Shown: positions 33,274 through 62,421 of the stretch, piece after piece | How positions within the stretch are numbered: position 1 is the stretch's first letter | Layout of the letters: every line of letters starts with the position of its first letter | Assembly: GCA_026396515.1 (NCBI GenBank) | Contig: JAPLWQ010000002.1 | Coordinates: forward strand, 193,230 to 257,229 | Direction of reading: 5' to 3' | Origin: Candidatus Magasanikiibacteriota bacterium | Lineage (GTDB): Bacteria; Patescibacteriota; Patescibacteriia; Magasanikbacterales; GWA2-37-8 | Length of the DNA stretch: 64,000 bases | The notes under the pieces: generated by a model | Told to the model about the DNA's origin: nothing | Databases searched by the model: none | What the model saw: only the letters and a program-made list of their open reading frames with translations | Program-made: the position numbers and the translations under genes

Positions 33274-35586
33274 TTATTGATTCGCCGGTGTTTCCTCCGG
33301 AGCAGCCGTTCCTCCACCAACCAGAGACCTAATTTTGCTTGTGATATCTTTATTGTCCGGATTTAAATCTTTTACTTTGTAATAGTACTGCAGAGCAGTT
33401 GTTTTATCTCCGCGCGATTCATACAGCAACCCTAAGCTGTATAAAGCGTTTGAATAATTTGGCTGGAGGTTCACTGAATTTAGCCAAAGCGTTTCGGCAT
33501 CAGCGCGATCTTTATCTTTATTGCGGTTATATAATAGGCGGCCAAAATCAAAGAGTAAAACCGGATTGTTCGCGGCACCATATGACATCGCAGCTTTGTA
33601 CGATTCTACCGCTTCATCCAATTTATTTTGCTGTTCATACACTCTCGCCAGGCCGACATACGAATCAAGATAGTCGCGCTTTAACTCGCTCGCCTCCTTA
33701 TAATTTTTTATCGCATCATCCATCTGGCTTGATAACGCATAGTTGTTGGCTAACCGCCAAGAAAGTACCGGGTTGGTCGGCTCAAGCTCTTTTGCCTTTT
33801 GCCACGATTTAATCGCCCACTCTCTCGCTTCAGGGACAATGACGGCCGCATTTTCATACATGATAGCCAGATTTTCCCAGATCGCAACAGAACGGGGGGA
33901 TATTTCAGTGGCAGTTCTCGCTTCGTTTACAGCTTGCGCCACAAACGAACTGACAGCTTGCAGGTCTTTGCTTCCAGTGTTAACTAAATTTACCGCCTGC
34001 ATTAAGTATACCTGCGCCAATGCTGCATGATAAACATCCGAGCTGCCCCTCTGAAACAGTGCACGAGTTAAATTGCTTTGCGCTTCATTATAATCTTTAC
34101 TGGTGATAGCTTTGGCATACGACGCCTCCGCAAGATATAACCGCGCCCCCCACACTCCAACCATAATCAGGCCGGCGAGCACAACAATCATTACGAATGA
34201 AAAAGTCAGGCTGTATTGCGGAGTATCTTCAACTTCCCACTCTTTTTGCTTAATTACTTCGGGGTTAATAAATGATAACCCGGTAATAATTAAACCAAGC
34301 ATCAGCCACCATAACCACCATAATACCGGACCGAAAAACACGACAGCCATGGCACCAGTTAATACCAGCCAGGCCGCTGCCGTAATAAAAGTATCCAATT
34401 TGGTTTCCACAGAGTCGCCCATATCAACCATTTTAACAGCCGAAAAACCACCCCTCTTAAACCAAACGTTAAATACATGGCCAATTACATATAGGACCGC
34501 GAACAGAATAATAAGAGTGATCAGGACTCCGCCTTCAGCAAGGAGCGCCATAAAGGTTGAAAGCGGCTGACTGAACCGTAATGACCAAGCCAAAGTATCA
34601 TTATTAAAATCAACTGACCGATACTTTGAGAAATCAACATTGAAAGTACCCAAACCACTACCCAATAAAAATCCTTTTGCTCCGGAAAAAATAGTTTGAG
34701 ATGTAATGGACCATGAAGGTTTTGCCCCAAGAGAAATTTCGGCCGGAACTGCAGTCTGCAAATATCTCGGCGTACCAAATGCGATAAATATTACCGTTAA
34801 CATTAACATGGCAAACAAAGCTGAAACCCAGCCCAGCCGTACTTCTTTCATAAAGCTGACACCGACAAGCAGTAATAATATCAACCCTGCCAACACTATC
34901 CACCAAAGAATATTAAAGCTGAGCAACACGAGCGAGGCAAAACAAAGAATCGTTACGAAGAAATACATTATTGACTTCCCTACCAACATGTTCTTTTTAA
35001 GCAAATTGCCCGCGGCCAATAACATGATGACAATAATCCAAATGCCAAATGGCGTATTAATTTTATCAATTGAATTTAATGCGCCCGGGAATAACCAAGA
35101 AAGCAAGTCAAGTTTAAAGACAGCCTTCAAGATAAACACTAATGTCGTAAATCCACCGGTGTACACCATGGCATCAACCAAACCGCTCCAACGCGCGCGG
35201 GAATTGATGAAATTAGTAATAAGAAAATAAAAAACCGCTAGGAAAATAAGGTAAACATAGTTGAACACGAAATATTCATTTCTACCAAGAAACGAATCAT
35301 AATGATTCACTGAAAAAATGGACGAGAAAAGTGCGAACAGCAGTAAACCCAAGATCGGTAAATCCATTATTGACCGACGGTATGAAAGTGTTTTTGACAA
35401 AATCATTTTCGCCACAAACAAAATTACATTTACCAACAGTAAGCATATAAATGCATACTGTTTTGGTATGATATAAAAATTAACCAAATTTCTGTCCATA
35501 AACAGCGGCACGGCCACTGCATTGACCAGCAAAAAGACATACGAAAATATGTCTATAAACTTCAATACCTTCTGATTACCCATCAT
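33274..35586 (-). CDS. Wzy_C (O-antigen ligase-like) polytopic membrane protein fused to C-terminal TPR repeats
   Basis: 770 aa. About 12 TM helices in the N-terminal 480 aa, then at least 5 TPR-like repeats. Same architecture as PglL/TfpO-type O-oligosaccharyltransferases. Confidence 0.6.
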   Translation of the reverse strand: MMGNQKVLKFIDIFSYVFLLVNAVAVPLFMDRNLVNFYIIPKQYAFICLLLVNVILFVAKMILSKTLSYRRSIMDLPILGLLLFALFSSIFSVNHYDSFLGRNEYFVFNYVYLIFLAVFYFLITNFINSRARWSGLVDAMVYTGGFTTLVFILKAVFKLDLLSWLFPGALNSIDKINTPFGIWIIVIMLLAAGNLLKKNMLVGKSIMYFFVTILCFASLVLLSFNILWWIVLAGLILLLLVGVSFMKEVRLGWVSALFAMLMLTVIFIAFGTPRYLQTAVPAEISLGAKPSWSITSQTIFSGAKGFLLGSGLGTFNVDFSKYRSVDFNNDTLAWSLRFSQPLSTFMALLAEGGVLITLIILFAVLYVIGHVFNVWFKRGGFSAVKMVDMGDSVETKLDTFITAAAWLVLTGAMAVVFFGPVLWWLWWLMLGLIITGLSFINPEVIKQKEWEVEDTPQYSLTFSFVMIVVLAGLIMVGVWGARLYLAEASYAKAITSKDYNEAQSNLTRALFQRGSSDVYHAALAQVYLMQAVNLVNTGSKDLQAVSSFVAQAVNEARTATEISPRSVAIWENLAIMYENAAVIVPEAREWAIKSWQKAKELEPTNPVLSWRLANNYALSSQMDDAIKNYKEASELKRDYLDSYVGLARVYEQQNKLDEAVESYKAAMSYGAANNPVLLFDFGRLLYNRNKDKDRADAETLWLNSVNLQPNYSNALYSLGLLYESRGDKTTALQYYYKVKDLNPDNKDITSKIRSLVGGGTAAPEETPANQ

Positions 35587-35853
35587 AATGTATATATTAC
35601 GAGTAAAATATTTATTATTAAGTCAACAAACGGCGATCCGACCGAATCACCTGCAGCAATTATATCACACTTTATAAATATGATAAACTGTGAATAACTC
35701 AGTAATGGGACCTGTGTAAACATCTGCACATCTCGGAACCGTGTCCATGTATTTATGGCATATGCATGTGCTCTATTGCGCGAACTGGAAGTTCAACCGG
35801 GTTGGACAATTCATTTTCGGGTTATCTCACGCCTCGTGTGCAGAAATGTCATT

Positions 35854-35877
35854 TTTGTGTACGCTAGCGTACACAAA
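35854..35877. promoter_or_regulatory. 24-bp perfect palindrome P1, copy a
   Basis: TTTGTGTACGCTAGCGTACACAAA is its own reverse complement. Copies at 36825-36848, 61047-61070 (1 mismatch) and 61160-61183. Confidence 0.6.
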
Positions 35878-35913
35878 TTTTCAATATATCGCATGCTATC
35901 CACAATTTATTCA

Positions 35914-35938
35914 CAAAAAAATACCCTGCAAGGGTATT
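35914..35938 (-). terminator. Terminator of tRNA-Ala(CGC) (minus strand)
   Basis: Minus-strand read AAATACCCTTGCAGGGTATTTTTT: hairpin plus U-run directly 3' of the tRNA. Confidence 0.55.
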
Positions 35939-35942
35939 TGAG

Positions 35943-36013
35943 TGGACTTACCGGGAATTGAACCCGGGTCTCCGCAATGCGAATGCGGCGTACTACCGCT
36001 GTACTATAAGCCC
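35943..36013 (-). tRNA. tRNA-Ala(CGC)
   Basis: Acceptor GGGCTTA/TAAGTCC with G3:U70, anticodon loop TTCGCAT, T-arm CCGGG-TTCAATT-CCCGG. Confidence 0.8.
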
Positions 36014-36091
36014 AAATATATGATGCCAATGCTATATCCTCGGTAATGGAGATAAATTTCAATTTCCAACACACCGAATAGCTTGCTCGAA

Positions 36092-36113
36092 AATTGTTTC
36101 ACGTGAAACAATT
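36092..36113. promoter_or_regulatory. 22-bp perfect palindrome P2, copy a
   Basis: AATTGTTTCACGTGAAACAATT with a CACGTG core. Identical copy at 36580-36601 and an 18-bp core copy at 36729-36746. Confidence 0.6.
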
Positions 36114-36280
36114 TGACTCAATTTCGAATATTATATCACAATTCTTGAAGAAATCAAGGGCAAAATGTGTATAATTGTGCATAAATACCGCCTCTTGTCA
36201 GGATATCAGCCAGAACATAAAAAAAACCGCCTCAACCGAAGTATGTTGGCGGGAGCAGAGGGGCTGCTCAGTCCTTGCGA

Positions 36281-36535
36281 TCACTTGCTCTTGTAGAAGA
36301 TGGTAATGGTAACATGATGAGAAAGGCGGCCGGAAGCGTTTTGTAGCACCCGCGTGATCTCGACGGTTGCGCCGGCCAACTCGAGCCAGTCATTAATCTG
36401 CTTCTCGAGACCCACTGAGTTATCGACCGCATAGAACACTTTTACTCTCTCCATTTGCTTCCTCCTTTTCGGCAAAAAATGAGCTTGAACCACTATCGGC
36501 TTACTCAAAATAGCACGTGATGTCATTTCTGTCAA
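36281..36535 (-). CDS. Small hypothetical protein bracketed by P2 palindromes
   Basis: 84-aa ORF, or 57 aa from MERVKVFYAVDNS. P2a lies downstream and P2b upstream. No homology recognised. Confidence 0.3.
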   Translation of the reverse strand: MTEMTSRAILSKPIVVQAHFLPKRRKQMERVKVFYAVDNSVGLEKQINDWLELAGATVEITRVLQNASGRLSHHVTITIFYKSK

Positions 36536-36579
36536 TATAGCGCCGGAAAACAGCTATTTACGCAGTTATACATGATAAG

Positions 36580-36601
36580 AATTGTTTCACGTGAAACAAT
36601 T
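36580..36601. promoter_or_regulatory. Palindrome P2, copy b
   Basis: AATTGTTTCACGTGAAACAATT. Confidence 0.6.
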
Positions 36602-36646
36602 CTTTGGGTAAATATGAGATTTTTGGCTAATTTCAGCCAAATATAG

Positions 36647-36718
36647 TGTCCTCGCCAGGAATCGAACCTGGATCCGAGCATTAGGAGTGCCCGGTTCTAT
36701 CCATTAAACTACGAGGAC
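36647..36718 (-). tRNA. tRNA-Arg(CCT)
   Basis: Acceptor GTCCTCG/CGAGGAC, D-stem GTTT/AGAC-type, anticodon loop CTCCTAA, T-arm CCAGG-TTCGATT-CCTGG. Confidence 0.8.
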
Positions 36719-36728
36719 CTGATAGAAG

Positions 36729-36746
36729 ATGTTTCACGTGAAACAT
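36729..36746. promoter_or_regulatory. Palindrome P2, copy c (18-bp core)
   Basis: ATGTTTCACGTGAAACAT, 10 bp from the tRNA-Arg 5' end. Confidence 0.55.
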
Positions 36747-36824
36747 TCTTGCACGTTAAATGCCACCACTATCACAATGCCTGCAATTGTCATATGCGCA
36801 ATCCTAGAAGTCGATTTTCACGCG

Positions 36825-36848
36825 TTTGTGTACGCTAGCGTACACAAA
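36825..36848. promoter_or_regulatory. Palindrome P1, copy b (upstream of rmuC)
   Basis: TTTGTGTACGCTAGCGTACACAAA, about 105 bp upstream of the rmuC start. Confidence 0.6.
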
Positions 36849-36953: not shown

Positions 36954-38033
36954 ATGACTACACAACTACTCACAATTATCTTGCTATCACTCCTAGTCTT
37001 CGTACTAATCGTCTTCGTTATCGTCCGCGGTTCAAGAAATCATTCTGGAAAAGACGACAATAACCTATATCTTTTGATTCAAAACCAAATACAGGATCTC
37101 TCCCGTCTTATGGACCAAAAAATGGGCGAAACAAACCGTACTATGAATGAGACGCAAACCAACCTTCACAAAACCATTCAAACGCAGTTTGGACAAAGCG
37201 CGAAAATAATATCCGATGTCACCGAGCGCCTGACCAAACTGGATGAGACCAACCGCCAGGTAATCGGATTTGCCGACCAGCTTCAGAATTTGGAAAACAT
37301 ATTACAAAATCCGAAACAACGCGGCATCCTTGGAGAGTATTATCTGGAAAATGTTTTAAAGAATGTTTTGCCACCGGGCTCGTATGAAATGCAGTATAAA
37401 TTTCCGGACGGAGATATCGTTGATGCAGTTGTGTTTGTGAAGGACAAAATCATACCAATTGACTCCAAATTCAGTTTGGAAAACTATAACCGTGCTGTCG
37501 GCGAGAAAGACCCGGTTCGCCGTGCCGAATTGGAAAATGATTTTAAAAATGATCTAAAAAAGCGCATTGATGAAACAAGCAAATACATCAAACCCAAAGA
37601 GGGGACGATGGATTTTGCTTTTATGTTTATTCCGGCCGAGGGCATTTATTACGATCTACTTATCAATCAAGTCGGCGCGATGAAGGTAAATACTCATGAT
37701 CTAATTGAATACGCTTTCAAAGAAAAACGCGTCATTATTGTTTCGCCAACTTCATTTCTCGCTTATCTGCAAACTGTGATGCAGGGCTTGCGCGCTTTGC
37801 AAATTGAGGATTCCGCCAAAGAAATTCGCAAGCGGGTGGAAGACTTAGGCAAACATATTTTGGCCTATGATGATTATTTAAAAAAGCTCGGCGGTAATCT
37901 TTCTACTACTGTGAATTCTTACAATTCCGCTTACAAAGAATTTAACAAAATTGATAAGGACGTAATAAAAATCGCAGGCGGAGAAAAACAAATTGAGCCG
38001 GTTTTATTGGATAAACCGAATGTTGAAGAATAG
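36954..38033 (+). CDS. rmuC: DNA recombination protein RmuC
   Basis: N-terminal TM helix, coiled coil, and C-terminal RmuC domain (FAFMFIPAEGIYYDLL...). Start set at MTTQLL. The track ORF start at 36729 overlaps the tRNA and palindromes; an alternative ATG is at 36894. Confidence 0.75.
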   Translation: MTTQLLTIILLSLLVFVLIVFVIVRGSRNHSGKDDNNLYLLIQNQIQDLSRLMDQKMGETNRTMNETQTNLHKTIQTQFGQSAKIISDVTERLTKLDETNRQVIGFADQLQNLENILQNPKQRGILGEYYLENVLKNVLPPGSYEMQYKFPDGDIVDAVVFVKDKIIPIDSKFSLENYNRAVGEKDPVRRAELENDFKNDLKKRIDETSKYIKPKEGTMDFAFMFIPAEGIYYDLLINQVGAMKVNTHDLIEYAFKEKRVIIVSPTSFLAYLQTVMQGLRALQIEDSAKEIRKRVEDLGKHILAYDDYLKKLGGNLSTTVNSYNSAYKEFNKIDKDVIKIAGGEKQIEPVLLDKPNVEE

Positions 38034-52049: not shown

Positions 52050-52140
52050 CCTTTTCCACATCTCCTGCACTTTGTAAGTTCGATTTTTTGGCTATGTTGT
52101 GATAAAATTCAGTAAATTAAAAAACTCGGATATACCCATT

Positions 52141-53538
52141 ATGAACAATAACGAGATCTGGCAGGCCGTGCTTGCCGAACTGGAACTATCAATATCAAAA
52201 GCCAATTTTATCACCTGGTTTAAAAATACAGGCATCGTTTCAGTTCAGGAAGGCCAAATATTGCTTTGCGTGCCCAACACATTCGCACGCGCCTGGTTTG
52301 AAAAAAAATATCACCATATGATTATCAAATCAATGGAGCGCATTATGGGCAAGCCTGTGCGCCGCCTTGAATATAAAATTGATAATATAAGAAATTTAGC
52401 TGAACAAGCGGCAAATGCATTCGATACCTTTACCACTGCCTACGCCGGAGGCGCGGAGACAGTTGACGCCTCACGGTCACTATCGAGACCCGCCAGCCAA
52501 AATGGGGGTTTTGCTCTCAATCCAAAATATTGTTTTGAAAATTTTGTCGTCGGTAGCGGATCAGAGCTCGCTTACGCGGCGGCCAAGGCGGTTTCTGAAC
52601 GGCCCGGCGAAGCATACAATCCACTATTTATTTATGGGGGCGTCGGTCTCGGAAAAACCCACCTCATTCAGGCCATTGGCACCCAAATATTAAAAAATAA
52701 TCCAAGCGCCGCTGTTTTATACGTAAGCGCTGAAAAATTTTCAAATGATTTTATACAATCGGTAAAAGAAGGCACGGCAAAAGAATTTCAAAATCATTAC
52801 CGAAACATTGATTTGCTTCTAATTGATGATATCCAATTCATTGCCGGCAAAGACCGCACGCAGGAATCTTTTTTTCACACCTTCAACGAACTCCACCAAC
52901 AGAACAAGCAAATTGTATTAACCTCCGACCGGCCGCCAAAAGCCATCCCCACATTAGAGGACAGATTAAAATCCAGATTTGAGTGGGGGATGATCGCCGA
53001 CATTACCATGCCTGATTTTGAAACACGCGTCGCTATTTTGCAGAAGAAATGTTCAGAAAAAACTTTTGACTTGCCTGAAAAAGTGCTTCACACCATCGCC
53101 GCTTCAGTCCAATCGAATATTCGCGAGCTTGAGGGGTCGCTTAATAAAATTATCGCCTACCACCAATTGAAGAATTTGACTCCCTCGGTTGAGTCAGTGA
53201 AATCATTACTTAGCTCAATCGAAACAGCCTCAATGAAGCAATCACTGGCCCCGCGCCAGATTACAGAGACTGTTTGCCAGTTTTATAGCATCCCATCGGA
53301 AAACATTTCCAATAAAAGCCGCGAAAAACGCGTTTCTTACCCACGGCAGATCATTATGTATCTCATGCGTGAGGAATTAAAAATGTCTTACCCTACAATT
53401 GGCGGCGAATTGGGCGGCCGCGATCACACTACGGCAATGCACGCCTATGAGAAAATTCGGCGCGACGTTGAAAATAGCCCTAAATTGAAACAAGAAATTG
53501 AATTAATTAAGCAACGACTATATATAAATAATGTTTAA
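52141..53538 (+). CDS. dnaA: Chromosomal replication initiator DnaA
   Basis: AAA+ Walker A GGVGLGKTHL, Walker B LLLIDDIQF, sensor motifs, and the C-terminal DNA-binding domain with a DnaA signature. Alternative upstream start at 52099. Confidence 0.9.
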   Translation: MNNNEIWQAVLAELELSISKANFITWFKNTGIVSVQEGQILLCVPNTFARAWFEKKYHHMIIKSMERIMGKPVRRLEYKIDNIRNLAEQAANAFDTFTTAYAGGAETVDASRSLSRPASQNGGFALNPKYCFENFVVGSGSELAYAAAKAVSERPGEAYNPLFIYGGVGLGKTHLIQAIGTQILKNNPSAAVLYVSAEKFSNDFIQSVKEGTAKEFQNHYRNIDLLLIDDIQFIAGKDRTQESFFHTFNELHQQNKQIVLTSDRPPKAIPTLEDRLKSRFEWGMIADITMPDFETRVAILQKKCSEKTFDLPEKVLHTIAASVQSNIRELEGSLNKIIAYHQLKNLTPSVESVKSLLSSIETASMKQSLAPRQITETVCQFYSIPSENISNKSREKRVSYPRQIIMYLMREELKMSYPTIGGELGGRDHTTAMHAYEKIRRDVENSPKLKQEIELIKQRLYINNV

Positions 53539-53800: not shown

Positions 53801-54925
53801 ATGAAGATCACATGTATAAAAGAAAATTTAGCGACAGCACTATCATTAGTAACAAATTTGGCTACAAAGAGCGTAAATTTGCCAATATTAAGTAATGTTT
53901 TAATTAAAGCCAGCGAACAAAAAGTGGAAATAATATCAACAAATCTGGAATTAGCAATTATTGTTTCCATCAGGGCTAAGGTGGAAGAACCCGGGTCGTT
54001 TACCGTACCAGCTAGAACCCTGACAGATTTTGTAAATTTGCTAGCTGATGAAAAAATTGATGTCGAATTGAAAGAAAATGAACTGGTTGTGTCGTGCGGA
54101 AAATCGGCGACTAAGATTAAGGGTATCCCGGCGGACGAATATCCCGTCATACCAGCAGTGGGCGAGGGTCAGGGTTTTTTGGTACCGGTGGAAGATATGA
54201 AAAAAGGCCTCTCACAAGTCAACCTGGCGGCCGCGCGCAACGACATCAGGCCGGAACTGTCCGGTGTATTGTTTGCCTTTAATCTGGAAAACAGCGGCCA
54301 GTTGGTTGTAGCGGCGACAGATAGTTATCGCCTGGCCGAGAAAAAGATAAAGCTCCTTCAGGGCAAGGAATCCTTTCGGGTTATTGTACCAGGCCGCACC
54401 TCACAGGAAATTGCTCATATTCTTTCTTCGTCCAGTGAATTGGAATCTGAAAAAAGCGTACGCATAATTCTAAGTGAAAATCAGATTGCGGTGAATTATA
54501 ACAGTGTGCAGATGATTTCACGTTTGGTGGAAGGGCAATATCCGGACTACACTCAAATTATTCCCAAAGATTTCAAAACATCGGCTGAGTTTTCTATCGC
54601 CAAAATGGTTAAAGAAATAAAAGCAGCGAGTCTATTTACAACGGTCGGAGTAAACGCGGTTGCTTTTGATATTCTGCCCGCTGAGGGAGAAATAAAAATT
54701 GCGTCAACTTCAACTCAGACAGGTGAATATCGCTCCGGGATGGAAGCGGAAATTAAAGGAGAAAAAAATGCTATTCTCTTAAATCACAGATATTTATTGG
54801 ACGGGTTAAATAGTATTAACGGAGACGTAGGGACGCTTAAAATAATTAATAGTGACAGTCCATGCGTCCTCATTGGAAAAAACGAGGAAAATTATTTGTA
54901 TATAGTCATGCCTATACGGCAGTAG
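53801..54925 (+). CDS. dnaN: DNA polymerase III beta sliding clamp
   Basis: 374 aa, three-domain clamp, N-terminus MKITCIKENLATALSLV. Confidence 0.9.
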   Translation: MKITCIKENLATALSLVTNLATKSVNLPILSNVLIKASEQKVEIISTNLELAIIVSIRAKVEEPGSFTVPARTLTDFVNLLADEKIDVELKENELVVSCGKSATKIKGIPADEYPVIPAVGEGQGFLVPVEDMKKGLSQVNLAAARNDIRPELSGVLFAFNLENSGQLVVAATDSYRLAEKKIKLLQGKESFRVIVPGRTSQEIAHILSSSSELESEKSVRIILSENQIAVNYNSVQMISRLVEGQYPDYTQIIPKDFKTSAEFSIAKMVKEIKAASLFTTVGVNAVAFDILPAEGEIKIASTSTQTGEYRSGMEAEIKGEKNAILLNHRYLLDGLNSINGDVGTLKIINSDSPCVLIGKNEENYLYIVMPIRQ

Positions 54926-59695: not shown

Positions 59696-60133
59696 TTACT
59701 TAGCCGTTCGATCGCCGGCGGAATTGAAGATGCAAATTACGGCGCCGATAATAATTAAAATGTCAGCCAAGTTGAATAGACTGGTAACAAATAGGAAATA
59801 ATCGAGTGTCTTATGGAAGACAAGACGGTCAAATAGGTTGGAGATAGCTCCAAGCAAAATAAATAAAAATCCAAAACGTAAAATAGTATTTTTAGCATGG
59901 AAAAAATAAGTGAGCAGGATTGTAATAAATGCTATCGAAAGTATGATTATCGCGATTTGCGGAACAGGCAGGCCGAAGGCGATACCGGTATTTGTTGAAG
60001 GCGACCAACCTAAAAATCGGTTAACATATGCATCATGGCTCCAGGCAGATGCTGATAAAGTTTTAAATATACGGTCGGCGATAAATAAAAAACCGCCGAC
60101 AATTACGAGTGCCAGGCGGGTGTTGTTCGCCAT
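59696..60133 (-). CDS. lspA: Lipoprotein signal peptidase II
   Basis: 145 aa, four TM helices, conserved NTGIAFG and FNLADI blocks. Confidence 0.85.
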   Translation of the reverse strand: MANNTRLALVIVGGFLFIADRIFKTLSASAWSHDAYVNRFLGWSPSTNTGIAFGLPVPQIAIIILSIAFITILLTYFFHAKNTILRFGFLFILLGAISNLFDRLVFHKTLDYFLFVTSLFNLADILIIIGAVICIFNSAGDRTAK

Positions 60134-60148
60134 ATGATTATCTCAAGA

Positions 60149-60583
60149 TTACAATTCTTGAGTAATGGTTTTTTTGCATTCAACGCAGGCGCTTGAAGTT
60201 GGGCGAGCCAACAGGCGTTTTTCTTCAATCGCTTTTCCACAATATTTACACACCCCGTAAGTTCCTTTTTCAATACGCTCCATGGCTTTGTTCACGTCGC
60301 GTAGAGTTTTTTCCAGCCCTTCCTCAACTGGAAGATTATTGATATATTCAGCCACTTCAGCCGCGTTTTCATCTTCCTTATCTCCGTATTCGGGGAATTG
60401 CGTATCAAAATCATCAGCCACATGCTGGCTTTTTTTTGTAAATTGGCCCAGCTCATTTTCGAGCTTTAGGCGCTGTTCTTCCAGTTGTTTTGCAATCTCG
60501 TCTAGGAAGTCCTTGGAAAAAGAAGATTTTACATTCATAAAATTAATTGAATTCACTGTATCCACAGTAATAGTATATGGCAC
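60149..60583 (-). CDS. DksA/TraR-family C4 zinc-finger protein
   Basis: Coiled-coil N-terminus and C-terminal CKYCGKAIEEKRLLARPTSSACVECK. Confidence 0.75.
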   Translation of the reverse strand: MPYTITVDTVNSINFMNVKSSFSKDFLDEIAKQLEEQRLKLENELGQFTKKSQHVADDFDTQFPEYGDKEDENAAEVAEYINNLPVEEGLEKTLRDVNKAMERIEKGTYGVCKYCGKAIEEKRLLARPTSSACVECKKTITQEL

Positions 60584-61046
60584 TATTATACAAATTTATT
60601 ACCGATAGGTCAAGCAAATGGCCTGAAAATATAAAAGGCCGATACGCCCGTATAACATTGTTGTTTTGAGGCCTCGGCCTTTATTTGTCTACGAGTAAGC
60701 TTTTTTGCCCCTTTCGGGGCCTGTCGGCATTACGCCGTAGAACGATGATTCCAACCGCTTTGGGGTAGTACTCCAGACTTGTCGGCCGATATACGGCACA
60801 ACGAGTTAATAGCGGAGATACCCGGGTTGAAGTCGGAATGCCATGATTTCATTTTTTTATTTGATCGTGGTATTTCGGCTTGTGTTTTTTGCAGTTTGGA
60901 ATCGTAGTGGATTGTATCAATGAACGACATTTACATTTCTTACTACCTAAATAGTATACCATATTTTTGGTATCCTGTCAAGGGTGGGTGTTTTTTGGCA
61001 GGTTTTCTTTAATATTAGCCAAAAAAATGCATATTTTGCAATATTT

Positions 61047-61070
61047 TTTGTGTACACTAGTGTATACAAA
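61047..61070. promoter_or_regulatory. Palindrome P1, copy c
   Basis: TTTGTGTACACTAGTGTATACAAA, one mismatch from a perfect palindrome. Confidence 0.55.
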
Positions 61071-61159
61071 CATTATTTTAGCTATAATTAGGGCAAACTA
61101 TTAGGATTTGTACATAATTTATCCCCATATTCACAGAGTTATCCACAGACATATCCACT

Positions 61160-61183
61160 TTTGTATACACTAGCGTACACAAA
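61160..61183. promoter_or_regulatory. Palindrome P1, copy d
   Basis: TTTGTATACACTAGCGTACACAAA. 113 bp from copy c and about 120 bp upstream of the 61303 gene start. DnaA-box-like TTATCCACA at 61138-61146 is adjacent. Confidence 0.55.
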
Positions 61184-61302: not shown

Positions 61303-62421
61303 ATGAGCCACATAATAACAATTATTCTATTGATTTTGGCTGCCCTAGGCATTGTGTTTGCCAGCCATTTTTTCGTTTATTATTCACTTGGTCATTTTTT
61401 TAAGATTGTTAACCCTGACATCAACACGGCGATGGCTATTGTAATCTCAATTCTAGCTGTTAGCTTTATTGTCGCTTCCGTATTGGCCCACTGGAAGGAG
61501 AACATATTTACTCGGGCACTATATTTTACTTCCGGTCTGTGGCTCGGGTTATTGGTGAACCTGATCATTGCTTTATTGTTAGGATGGTTGGTTTCAGCGT
61601 TAGTGCATTCCGTCGGCATATATCCAAATTTGGCTATAATTGGCGTATTATCAGTTATTTTGGCGCTAATTTACACCTCTTGGGGTGTTTGGAGTGCATT
61701 TAATCCGGTCGTTCGGCATGTGGATATTACCATTAAAAACCTGCCTGAATATTGGAAGCAAAAGACAGTGGTACAAATATCAGACGTGCATTTGGGCCAT
61801 GTTTTTAACAAAAATTTCTTGAATAAAGTGGTAAGTCAAATAAACGCGGAAATGCCGGAAGCAGTATTCATCACCGGTGATTTGTTTGATGGTATGGACG
61901 GGCAGTTGGTTTCTCACGTCGGTCCGCTTGATAGTATTATCGCTAAGTATGGTGTGTTTTTTATTACCGGTAATCATGAAATATATTTTGGCGTTGACCG
62001 GGCAAAACAAATATTGTCACAAACAAAAGTGCGCATTTTATCAGATGAGACAGTCGATTTGGAAGGCCTTCAAATTGTCGGCTTAAATTATTCTGACCAA
62101 TTTGAAGACCGCGATCTTGTAAAACTAATCGGCGAACAGAAAAATTTTTCCGCTGATCGTCCGGCGATATTGCTTTATCACAGCCCGGTGCAGGTAGATA
62201 AGATTAAAAAGGCGGGCATTGATCTTCAACTTGCCGGCCATACTCACGGCGGCCAGATGTTTCCTTTCGGATATATTACCCGGCTGATATTCAGGGGATA
62301 TGACTATGGCTTGTCACGGGATGGCGATTTTTCAATTTACACCACTAGTGGGGTCGGTACATGGGGCCCGACCATCCGTACCGGTAACCGACCAGAAATA
62401 GTGGTCTTACATTTTCAATAA
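61303..62421 (+). CDS. Membrane-anchored metallophosphoesterase (calcineurin-like; YkuE type)
   Basis: Four N-terminal TM helices, then MPE motifs VQISDVHLGH, GDLFDG, GNHE, GHTHGGQ. Confidence 0.8.
   Translation: MSHIITIILLILAALGIVFASHFFVYYSLGHFFKIVNPDINTAMAIVISILAVSFIVASVLAHWKENIFTRALYFTSGLWLGLLVNLIIALLLGWLVSALVHSVGIYPNLAIIGVLSVILALIYTSWGVWSAFNPVVRHVDITIKNLPEYWKQKTVVQISDVHLGHVFNKNFLNKVVSQINAEMPEAVFITGDLFDGMDGQLVSHVGPLDSIIAKYGVFFITGNHEIYFGVDRAKQILSQTKVRILSDETVDLEGLQIVGLNYSDQFEDRDLVKLIGEQKNFSADRPAILLYHSPVQVDKIKKAGIDLQLAGHTHGGQMFPFGYITRLIFRGYDYGLSRDGDFSIYTTSGVGTWGPTIRTGNRPEIVVLHFQ

Follow-up and report, generated by a model that had tools for sequence, protein, structure and literature searches.

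A conserved 24-bp intergenic palindrome in Magasanikbacteria and related Patescibacteria as the likely operator of a small HTH_17 winged-helix regulator

What is the role of a perfect 24-bp palindrome that stands in intergenic DNA beside tRNA genes, ahead of rmuC and, in slightly degenerate form, ahead of a membrane metallophosphoesterase gene? The question is raised by a 64,000-nt stretch from a Candidatus Magasanikiibacteriota bacterium (contig JAPLWQ010000002.1, positions 193,230 to 257,229), hereafter the window, to which all coordinates without a locus prefix (such as L034) refer. The palindrome, TTTGTGTACGCTAGCGTACACAAA, will be named P1. It occurs in two exact copies, at 35854-35877 (P1a) and 36825-36848 (P1b), and in two imperfect ones, at 61047-61070 (P1c, three mismatches) and 61160-61183 (P1d, two mismatches), which are 113 bp apart from start to start; that is, there are four copies at two loci in 64 kb, none of them assigned a strand. 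A first-pass annotation of the window had described these four sites and taken them for the operator of a dimeric repressor, possibly with a DNA-damage or stress regulon. Judged by comparison of sequences across genomes, P1 is a genuine and conserved site and appears to be an operator not described before; we consider it rather likely to be that of a lineage-specific HTH_17 regulator, a winged-helix protein of the MerR/excisionase type.

All four copies were found where the first-pass annotation had placed them, and all are intergenic, as it had claimed. None of 100 dinucleotide-preserving shuffles of the window contained a P1 match at three or fewer mismatches, and the eight TTGTRTAC half-sites present in the 64 kb all fall within the four P1 sites. 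Similarity among the copies ends at the edges of the 24-mer, which points to a discrete site and not to a part of a longer repeat. The gene context also agreed with the annotation: P1a lies between tRNA-Ala, past whose 3′ end it stands by 64 bp, and a Wzy/tetratricopeptide repeat (TPR) gene, whose start it precedes by 267 bp, P1b ends 105 bp before the likely ATG of rmuC, and P1d, the outer site of the imperfect pair, ends 119 bp before the ATG of the metallophosphoesterase gene. The window variant carries GTGTACGC in both arms, and the centre of the perfect copies is GCTAGC.

A scan with the pattern TGTRTACRCTAGYGTAYACA of 185,579 species, each represented by one genome, returned P1 matches in 101 stretches. 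All but 7 of these (from 5 genomes, and outside the three gene contexts described below) come from about 68 species of the candidate phyla radiation (CPR), the metagenome-assembled genomes (MAGs) concerned being those of Magasanikbacteria, Falkowbacteria, Uhrbacteria and other Patescibacteria. Each genome has one to three matching stretches, e.g. two in a complete 1.19-Mb chromosome and three in a 628-kb contig of the closest relative. The first-pass annotation had reasoned that hundreds of copies genome-wide would make P1 a repetitive extragenic palindromic (REP)-like element; with one to three stretches per genome P1 is therefore not REP-like, and the operator idea survives. Repeats of the REP or miniature inverted-repeat transposable element type are ruled out by this copy number and by the lack of extension past 24 bp, and a phage operator is ruled out as well, since no match to P1 was found among the viral contigs scanned. 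No paper on the motif was found in a literature search.

The clade consensus of P1 is TTTGTATACACTAGTGTATACAAA, with the centre ACTAGT, and over 217 sites it reads TTTGTATAC-ACTAGT-GTATACAAA, most arm positions carrying 1.2-2.0 bits. P1 thus displays a dyad symmetry with conserved half-sites, and about 22 specific bases are kept across the ~68 species, beyond what pairing alone would preserve. The window variant alters both half-sites symmetrically, so that the inverted symmetry is kept while the direct-repeat symmetry of the consensus is lost; the inverted repeat is therefore the feature under selection. P1 occupies orthologous positions in the ~68 species, forming a phylogenetic footprint. 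Coding DNA of the closest relative is only 73-79% identical to that of the window, and in alignments of the intergenic DNA parS, the DnaA boxes and P1 appear as conserved islands. Arrays of P1 were also seen, with five copies at an exact 102-bp period in L098:481-910 and seven copies within ~340 bp in L037:5999-6356. Many of the P1-bearing MAG records are titled 'uncultured Gammaproteobacteria' (L002, L005, L006 and others, plus one Neisseria and one Syntrophomonas); their gene content and synteny are common with Magasanikbacteria, and the titles appear to be wrong.

Three gene contexts (A, B and C) recur in the ~68 species, and all three are present in six genomes. The commonest neighbours of P1 are the gene of an HTH_17 regulator, an operon for an extracytoplasmic function (ECF) sigma factor and its anti-sigma factor, and surface-protein and Wzy/TPR genes; dksA-like and lspA genes, tRNAs and an unannotated RNA are further common neighbours. 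Context A comprises 36 loci in which a small HTH_17 gene is divergent from the ECF sigma gene, downstream of which are encoded a DUF5667 protein, likely the anti-sigma factor, and then a large secreted protein. The HTH_17 gene (36 loci) and the divergent ECF sigma gene (38 loci) are the two most frequent of all neighbours. The intergenic region of context A contains up to three P1-like sites, spaced most often by ~82 bp. A TTGACA-17-TAtAxT promoter reads into the HTH_17 gene, and the centres of 36 P1-like sites fall at +0 to +19 relative to it; within the array the weakest site starts within or right after the -10 hexamer, and the other operators lie ~90 and ~170 bp upstream. In a second HTH_17 subfamily, retrieved through the protein, the -10 hexamer TACACT is located inside P1. 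It is at this HTH_17 promoter, in genomes other than that of the window, that P1 overlaps a core promoter, and a P1 site over the predicted -10 element and start is the classical geometry of negative autoregulation. The ECF sigma gene, for its part, has a conserved ECF-type promoter, TGTAACA-N16-CGTCTA, right before the start codon (e.g. L064:4600-4680 and L099:5600-5660), and a sigma-70-like TTGAC promoter further upstream, an arrangement suggesting that positive autoregulation of the sigma factor may be layered on P1 control.

The HTH_17 protein is ~95 aa long and ends in a conserved C-terminal tail, GIGQFV..WKI.N..SPNP. The family counts 433 homologues (identity of 50-100% among the 120 listed), which are annotated only as 'excisionase family DNA-binding protein'. 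Scores are 32.7 bits for PF12728 (HTH_17; cut-off 27) and 35.4 for TIGR01764 (cut-off 28.8), and a sequence search of the PDB with the regulator returned nothing significant. The AlphaFold model is a β-α-α-β-β-α winged helix with a predicted local distance difference test score of 86-88, the conserved tail being of low confidence, and its structural neighbours are Pukovnik Xis, GlnR-DNA, BldC, RdfS, NmlR and RacA. One short helix follows the wing, in place of the long C-terminal coiled coil and effector domain of canonical MerR proteins. The recognition helix, T-[IV]-R-R-A, is almost invariant, and the residue just before the Thr varies. When this residue is Leu, operator position 6 is a G (GTGTAC) in 7 of 8 genomes, as against 3 of 37 genomes when it is Gln, His or another residue (Fisher 2e-5, uncorrected for phylogeny); that is, A at position 6 goes with Gln/His regulators and G with Leu regulators. 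Reading of adenine by Gln is chemically sensible, and the Leu state is found on four separate branches of a neighbour-joining tree of the protein. Because the window sites carry GTGTACGC, a Leu-type regulator is predicted in the window's own genome.

In the mechanism that we infer from these observations, two subunits of the HTH_17 protein would bind head to head on the inverted TTGT(A/G)TAC half-sites, with the 6-bp centre between them. At the regulator's own gene, elsewhere in the genome, one operator over the -10 element and start would shut the promoter, and one or two stronger operators would lie toward the divergent ECF sigma/anti-sigma operon, at roughly helical-phase spacings with a peak at 82 bp. 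The two P1 loci of the window would then be targets of the same protein, namely the tRNA-Arg/tRNA-Ala island extending from rmuC to the Wzy/TPR operon, in which P1 is interleaved with three parS sites, and the region upstream of the unannotated RNA and the dksA-like and lspA genes, in which an array of DnaA boxes has a P1 site on either side. At both loci P1 would act from upstream of the promoters, ~112-115 bp from the predicted starts (in several relatives, 3-4 bp from the -35 hexamer), and the regulator would probably modulate these promoters, possibly with or against DnaA. The predicted regulon looks like one of cell envelope, stable RNA and origin-proximal genes and not like an SOS regulon.

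The first of the two loci belongs to context B, which comprises ~30 stretches including the window and has the order rmuC, P1, tRNA-Arg(cct), tRNA-Ala(cgc), P1, Wzy/TPR, followed by surface-protein genes with WxLIP-like and adhesin-like domains; some context-B genomes encode an additional TrmB-like regulator or LAGLIDADG protein. Two candidate regulon members flank the island in the window, rmuC (36954-38033, plus strand; Pfam RmuC, 7e-55; likely start ATG at 36954) and the Wzy-like/TPR membrane protein gene (33274-35586, minus strand), which is the first gene of a surface-protein operon. Between them lie tRNA-Ala(cgc) (35942-36013) and tRNA-Arg(cct) (36646-36718), both on the minus strand. 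P1a is situated upstream of the Wzy/TPR operon, past the tRNA-Ala's own terminator hairpin, and its orthologues are kept in L034, L035, L068, L082 and others. Orthologues of P1b, which lies in the divergent intergenic region between tRNA-Arg and rmuC, are kept in L034 and L012, and the distance from P1 to rmuC is within 42-117 bp in L012, L034, L049 and L037. A tentative leaderless rmuC promoter (TTGCCG-17-TATAAA, our own reading) lies ~114 bp downstream of P1b, which also precedes tRNA-Arg by ~107 bp, a parS site standing between the two; in L034 the P1 beside tRNA-Arg ends 12 bp before a TTGACT-17-GATAAT promoter. The exact window variant was recovered from metagenomes on two context-B contigs of another organism, with no regulator gene on them.

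The same island contains a second palindrome (P2), TGTTTCACGTGAAACA, which we take to be the canonical parS sequence. Its three copies, all within 650 bp, match the parS consensus TGTTNCACGTGAAACA perfectly, whereas P1 does not match it. They are located at 36094-36111 (site 1, core at 36095), 36582-36599 (site 2, core at 36583) and 36729-36746 (site 3, core at 36730), again without strand, and are interleaved with tRNA-Arg, tRNA-Ala, P1a and P1b. Site 3 lies between tRNA-Arg and P1b, 79 bp from the latter, so that both are in the upstream region of tRNA-Arg. More than 20 genomes have clusters of two to four parS sites next to their context-B P1, and the three-parS region of the window is probably the chromosome's centromere.

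Context C, to which the second locus belongs, comprises ~15 loci including the window, with the order P1, two to four phased DnaA boxes, 60-100 bp, P1, a strong sigma-70-type promoter, an unannotated transcript of ~315-400 nt, dksA-like and lspA. In the window the DnaA-box array (61119-61159, plus strand) lies between P1c and P1d, with TTATCCCCA at 61119, TTATCCACA at 61139 and ATATCCAC(T) at ~61151; in all there are three to four boxes with a period of 11-12 bp, forming a phased cluster. P1d, the distal site, directly abuts the array, the gap between box and distal P1 being 0-2 bp in context C, and the composite of P1 and DnaA boxes recurs in 15 related loci. P1c, the promoter-proximal site, is centred ~112 bp upstream of the start predicted from a TTGACA-17-TATACT promoter (60981-60953), and in five relatives the corresponding P1 ends 3-4 bp before the -35 hexamer. 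Promoter and candidate non-coding RNA together span 60631-60981 on the minus strand, the RNA running from ~60946 to 60631 (~316 nt) with a terminator hairpin at its end. In context C it is this candidate RNA that is conserved downstream of P1, and it is followed by the dksA-like zinc-finger gene (60149-60583) and lspA (59696-60133), both on the minus strand. An RNAalifold analysis of nine homologues gave weak covariation, and an Rfam search of the RNA returned only tRNAs above the gathering threshold, low-score matches being noise. The blocks GACTTC..CCCGGGTA.CTCC and GGGG..CTACCC..AAGCGGTT of the RNA are conserved in at least 12 genomes, and a 66-aa open reading frame (ORF) that overlaps it has a start codon that is not conserved. 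On the other side of the array, the membrane metallophosphoesterase gene (61303-62421, plus strand) adjoins P1 only in the window and in the closest relative, L001, the conserved partners at this locus being the DnaA-box array and the RNA/dksA side.

A number of points weigh against an HTH_17 regulator as the binder of P1. Context A is absent from the window, as neither an HTH_17 nor an ECF sigma gene was found in a tblastn search of the window, and the pairing of regulator and operator is thus drawn from other genomes. Within the window no core promoter overlapped by P1 could be confidently predicted, P1 lying upstream of the predicted promoters, and from its sequence we can only say that it is a promoter-associated site there. 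The operator reading put forward in the first-pass annotation is supported, in that P1 is low in copy number, forms conserved islands at orthologous positions and overlaps a promoter at one conserved locus, that of the HTH_17 gene. The two targets that it had named fared differently: the adjacency to rmuC is conserved but confounded, since the divergent region of P1b is common to tRNA-Arg and a parS site, and that to the phosphoesterase is restricted to two genomes. The co-variation of residue and operator has one exception, L072, and its statistic ignores phylogeny. Most characterised HTH_17 relatives, such as Xis and BldC, bind direct repeats in head-to-tail arrays. Moreover, a TrmB-like regulator, its gene found beside P1 in ~15 loci, might be the binder instead, and the flanks of the half-sites, at positions 12-15, co-vary beyond composition, which would also fit a hairpin.

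The alternative that P1 is the operator of another DNA-binding protein, TrmB-like or other, with the HTH_17 gene only its most conserved target, is in our opinion unlikely. It draws on these ~15 TrmB-family genes, with P1 lying 26-74 bp upstream of the start in L012, L023, L044 and L060, and on the fact that adjacency alone does not name a binder. Yet the TrmB-like gene is missing in the window and at most loci of context B, never occurs in contexts A or C and has no operator over its own start site, and the residue/operator co-variation points to HTH_17 and not to the TrmB-like protein. That P1 functions as a hairpin or cruciform (a terminator, RNA-processing signal or REP-like element) we regard as very improbable. 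The perfect copies do fold as DNA at -9 kcal/mol, P1a is followed by TTTT and was flagged as terminator-like, and pairing at flank positions 12-15 exceeds that predicted from composition; this excess, though, is inconsistent between sites of one genome, the imperfect window copies reach only -2 to -5 kcal/mol, and the low copy number and ~22 specific bases conserved in ~68 species are not those of a mere hairpin. Many sites lie between divergent promoters, where there is nothing to terminate, and tRNA-Ala has its own terminator ahead of P1a. The stem of P1 is rich in A and T and is not regularly followed by a T-tract (a T-run is seen at P1a only), whereas the real terminators of the genome are GC-rich with A/T-run flanks. 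An intrinsic terminator was rejected on both context and energetics. We give hardly any credence to the possibility that P1 is the LexA (SOS) box of the lineage, for which speak rmuC, a recombination gene and recurrent neighbour, and the TGTATA...TATACA arms, which faintly recall the E. coli box. The E. coli LexA box is CTGT-N8-ACAG, and the spacing in P1 is TTGT-N14-ACAA, not N8. The DNA-damage regulon that it had hinted at found no support, since lexA, recA, uvr and polymerase genes flank none of the 101 stretches, and the autoregulated neighbour is the HTH_17 protein, which is not LexA-like. Published work on a LexA network of Patescibacteria exists and is cited in PMC8565304 and PMC7739468.

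A different kind of alternative, which we also hold to be improbable, is that P1 serves mainly in chromosome maintenance, together with DnaA-box clusters and parS near the origin, be it as a datA/DARS-like accessory site, a site for an origin regulator, a RacA-like anchor or a boundary of ParB spreading. The loci, 795 kb in all, contain 80 perfect DnaA boxes, of which ~45 are no further than 80 bp from P1 (~3 expected), at stereotyped offsets that include the 0-2 bp gap of context C; such fixed spacings, though, are explicable by the shared ancestry of the intergenic regions. The interleaving of parS clusters with P1 in more than 20 genomes and the presence of RacA among the fold neighbours of the HTH_17 protein would also fit a maintenance role. 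Furthermore, dnaA (52099-53538) and dnaN (53801-54925) lie between the two P1 loci, DnaA boxes occur around dnaA (52041, 52052, 53553 and 53593), and the cumulative GC skew has its minimum, or turning zone, between 46 and 61 kb; the window therefore spans the replication origin region. DnaA boxes are present at several loci (context C, dnaA, context B), the skew narrows the origin only to 46-61 kb, and context C could not be established as oriC, as the skew is uninformative at such a scale. No DnaA-trio or unwinding element was recognised beside P1 when the context-C sequences were inspected by eye. Context A, the commonest context, lies 230-370 kb from the other P1 loci, without consistent DnaA boxes and with its clear promoter-overlap geometry; P1 is therefore not purely an origin element. 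DnaA itself may be involved in transcription here. Two DnaA-box-like 9-mers, CTATCCACA and TTATTCACA (35896-35915, plus strand), occur 20-30 bp from P1a and are conserved in L034, L035 and L012, and another TTATTCACA (35689-35697, minus strand) abuts the -35 hexamer of the predicted Wzy/TPR promoter (35686-35659), at the same place as in L034. The position of this conserved box against the -35 suggests a role of DnaA as transcription factor at such promoters, including that of the Wzy/TPR surface-protein operon, which counts against maintenance as the main role. The P1-binding protein and DnaA may cooperate or compete, or alternatively the composites may act in replication control.

If P1 is the operator of the HTH_17 regulator, the closest known systems would include GlnR and TnrA of Bacillus, which bind long inverted repeats that open with TGT and close with ACA, in many cases at several operators per promoter. 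P1 is likewise a TGT...ACA inverted repeat with several sites per promoter, and the HTH_17 protein is, like them, small and built of a MerR-type winged helix at the N-terminus followed by a short C-terminal tail, with GlnR-DNA complexes among its best fold matches. In contrast, no sequence relationship is detectable apart from the shared fold, the spacing differs (TGTATAC-N6-GTATACA in P1 vs TGTNA-N7-TNACA), and the P1 target genes are unrelated to nitrogen metabolism. By family (PF12728, TIGR01764) and closest fold matches, the protein belongs with BldC of Streptomyces, Pukovnik Xis and RdfS. With BldC it would share the role of a chromosomal regulator, not a recombination factor, and several sites per target. 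However, BldC and Xis form head-to-tail oligomers on direct repeats, whereas P1 is inverted, with symmetric variants that speak for binding by a head-to-head dimer, and unlike the sites of phage and integrative and conjugative element excisionases P1 has no integrase or mobile-element context and no viral matches. IHF and Fis at E. coli datA/DARS, the origin boxes of Spo0A, CtrA and MtrA, and the ram sites of RacA are similar in that a protein site stands at a fixed spacing to phased DnaA boxes, near the origin and beside the parS centromere. The differences are that P1 is also found at an origin-distal promoter and that the HTH_17 family is distinct from IHF, Fis and response regulators. Finally, REP elements and bacterial interspersed mosaic elements are also short, hairpin-capable intergenic palindromes, but they number tens to hundreds of copies, mostly after genes, whereas P1 has one to three matching stretches per genome, at conserved positions in promoter regions.

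Some further features of the two loci may be mentioned. A third palindrome, TTTGGCTAATTTCAGCCAAA, lies beside tRNA-Arg at 36622-36641 and again at 61004-61023, and its half-motif TTTRGCTAA was observed 32 times within 120 bp of P1, compared with 4.6 expected (~7-fold, among related loci). Between parS sites 1 and 2 there is a 57-aa ORF (36281-36454, minus strand) with a strong GGAGG ribosome-binding site, for which no Pfam or NCBIfam family match was obtained. In four genomes, free-standing single-motif LAGLIDADG genes (127-150 aa; L028:3916-4368, L083:2780-3211, L094:7045-7437 and L100:310-693) are present in the parS/tRNA island, 19-96 bp from P1. Homodimeric LAGLIDADG enzymes of this kind cut pseudo-palindromes of ~22 bp, and a link between these enzymes and P1 is conceivable; a tblastn search of the window found neither a LAGLIDADG nor a TrmB-like gene in it.

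To our knowledge, almost nothing is known about gene regulation in CPR bacteria, which cannot be grown alone and encode very few regulators. The HTH_17 protein and P1 would provide a candidate regulator-operator pair, with a 22-24-bp site, a ~95-aa protein and a predicted specificity-determining residue, conserved across a class-level lineage. The small candidate regulon would link rmuC and stable-RNA genes with an ECF sigma factor and with genes for surface proteins and lipoprotein processing. In terms of annotation, the analysis marks a conserved RNA so far without annotation, the neighbourhood of the origin and the putative centromere, which holds three parS sites. Because P1 is systematically paired with DnaA boxes and parS near the origin, the pattern suggests that DnaA and the P1 factor share control regions; if confirmed, this would offer a rare view of how replication may be coordinated with surface functions in reduced genomes. 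It is also conceivable, although we consider it quite a long shot, that the P1-binding protein ties both replication and segregation to the surface of these ultra-small bacteria: P1/DnaA composites and P1 sites bracketing parS might let it control the availability of DnaA or the spreading of ParB near the origin, while the same protein would gate the ECF sigma/surface-protein programme.

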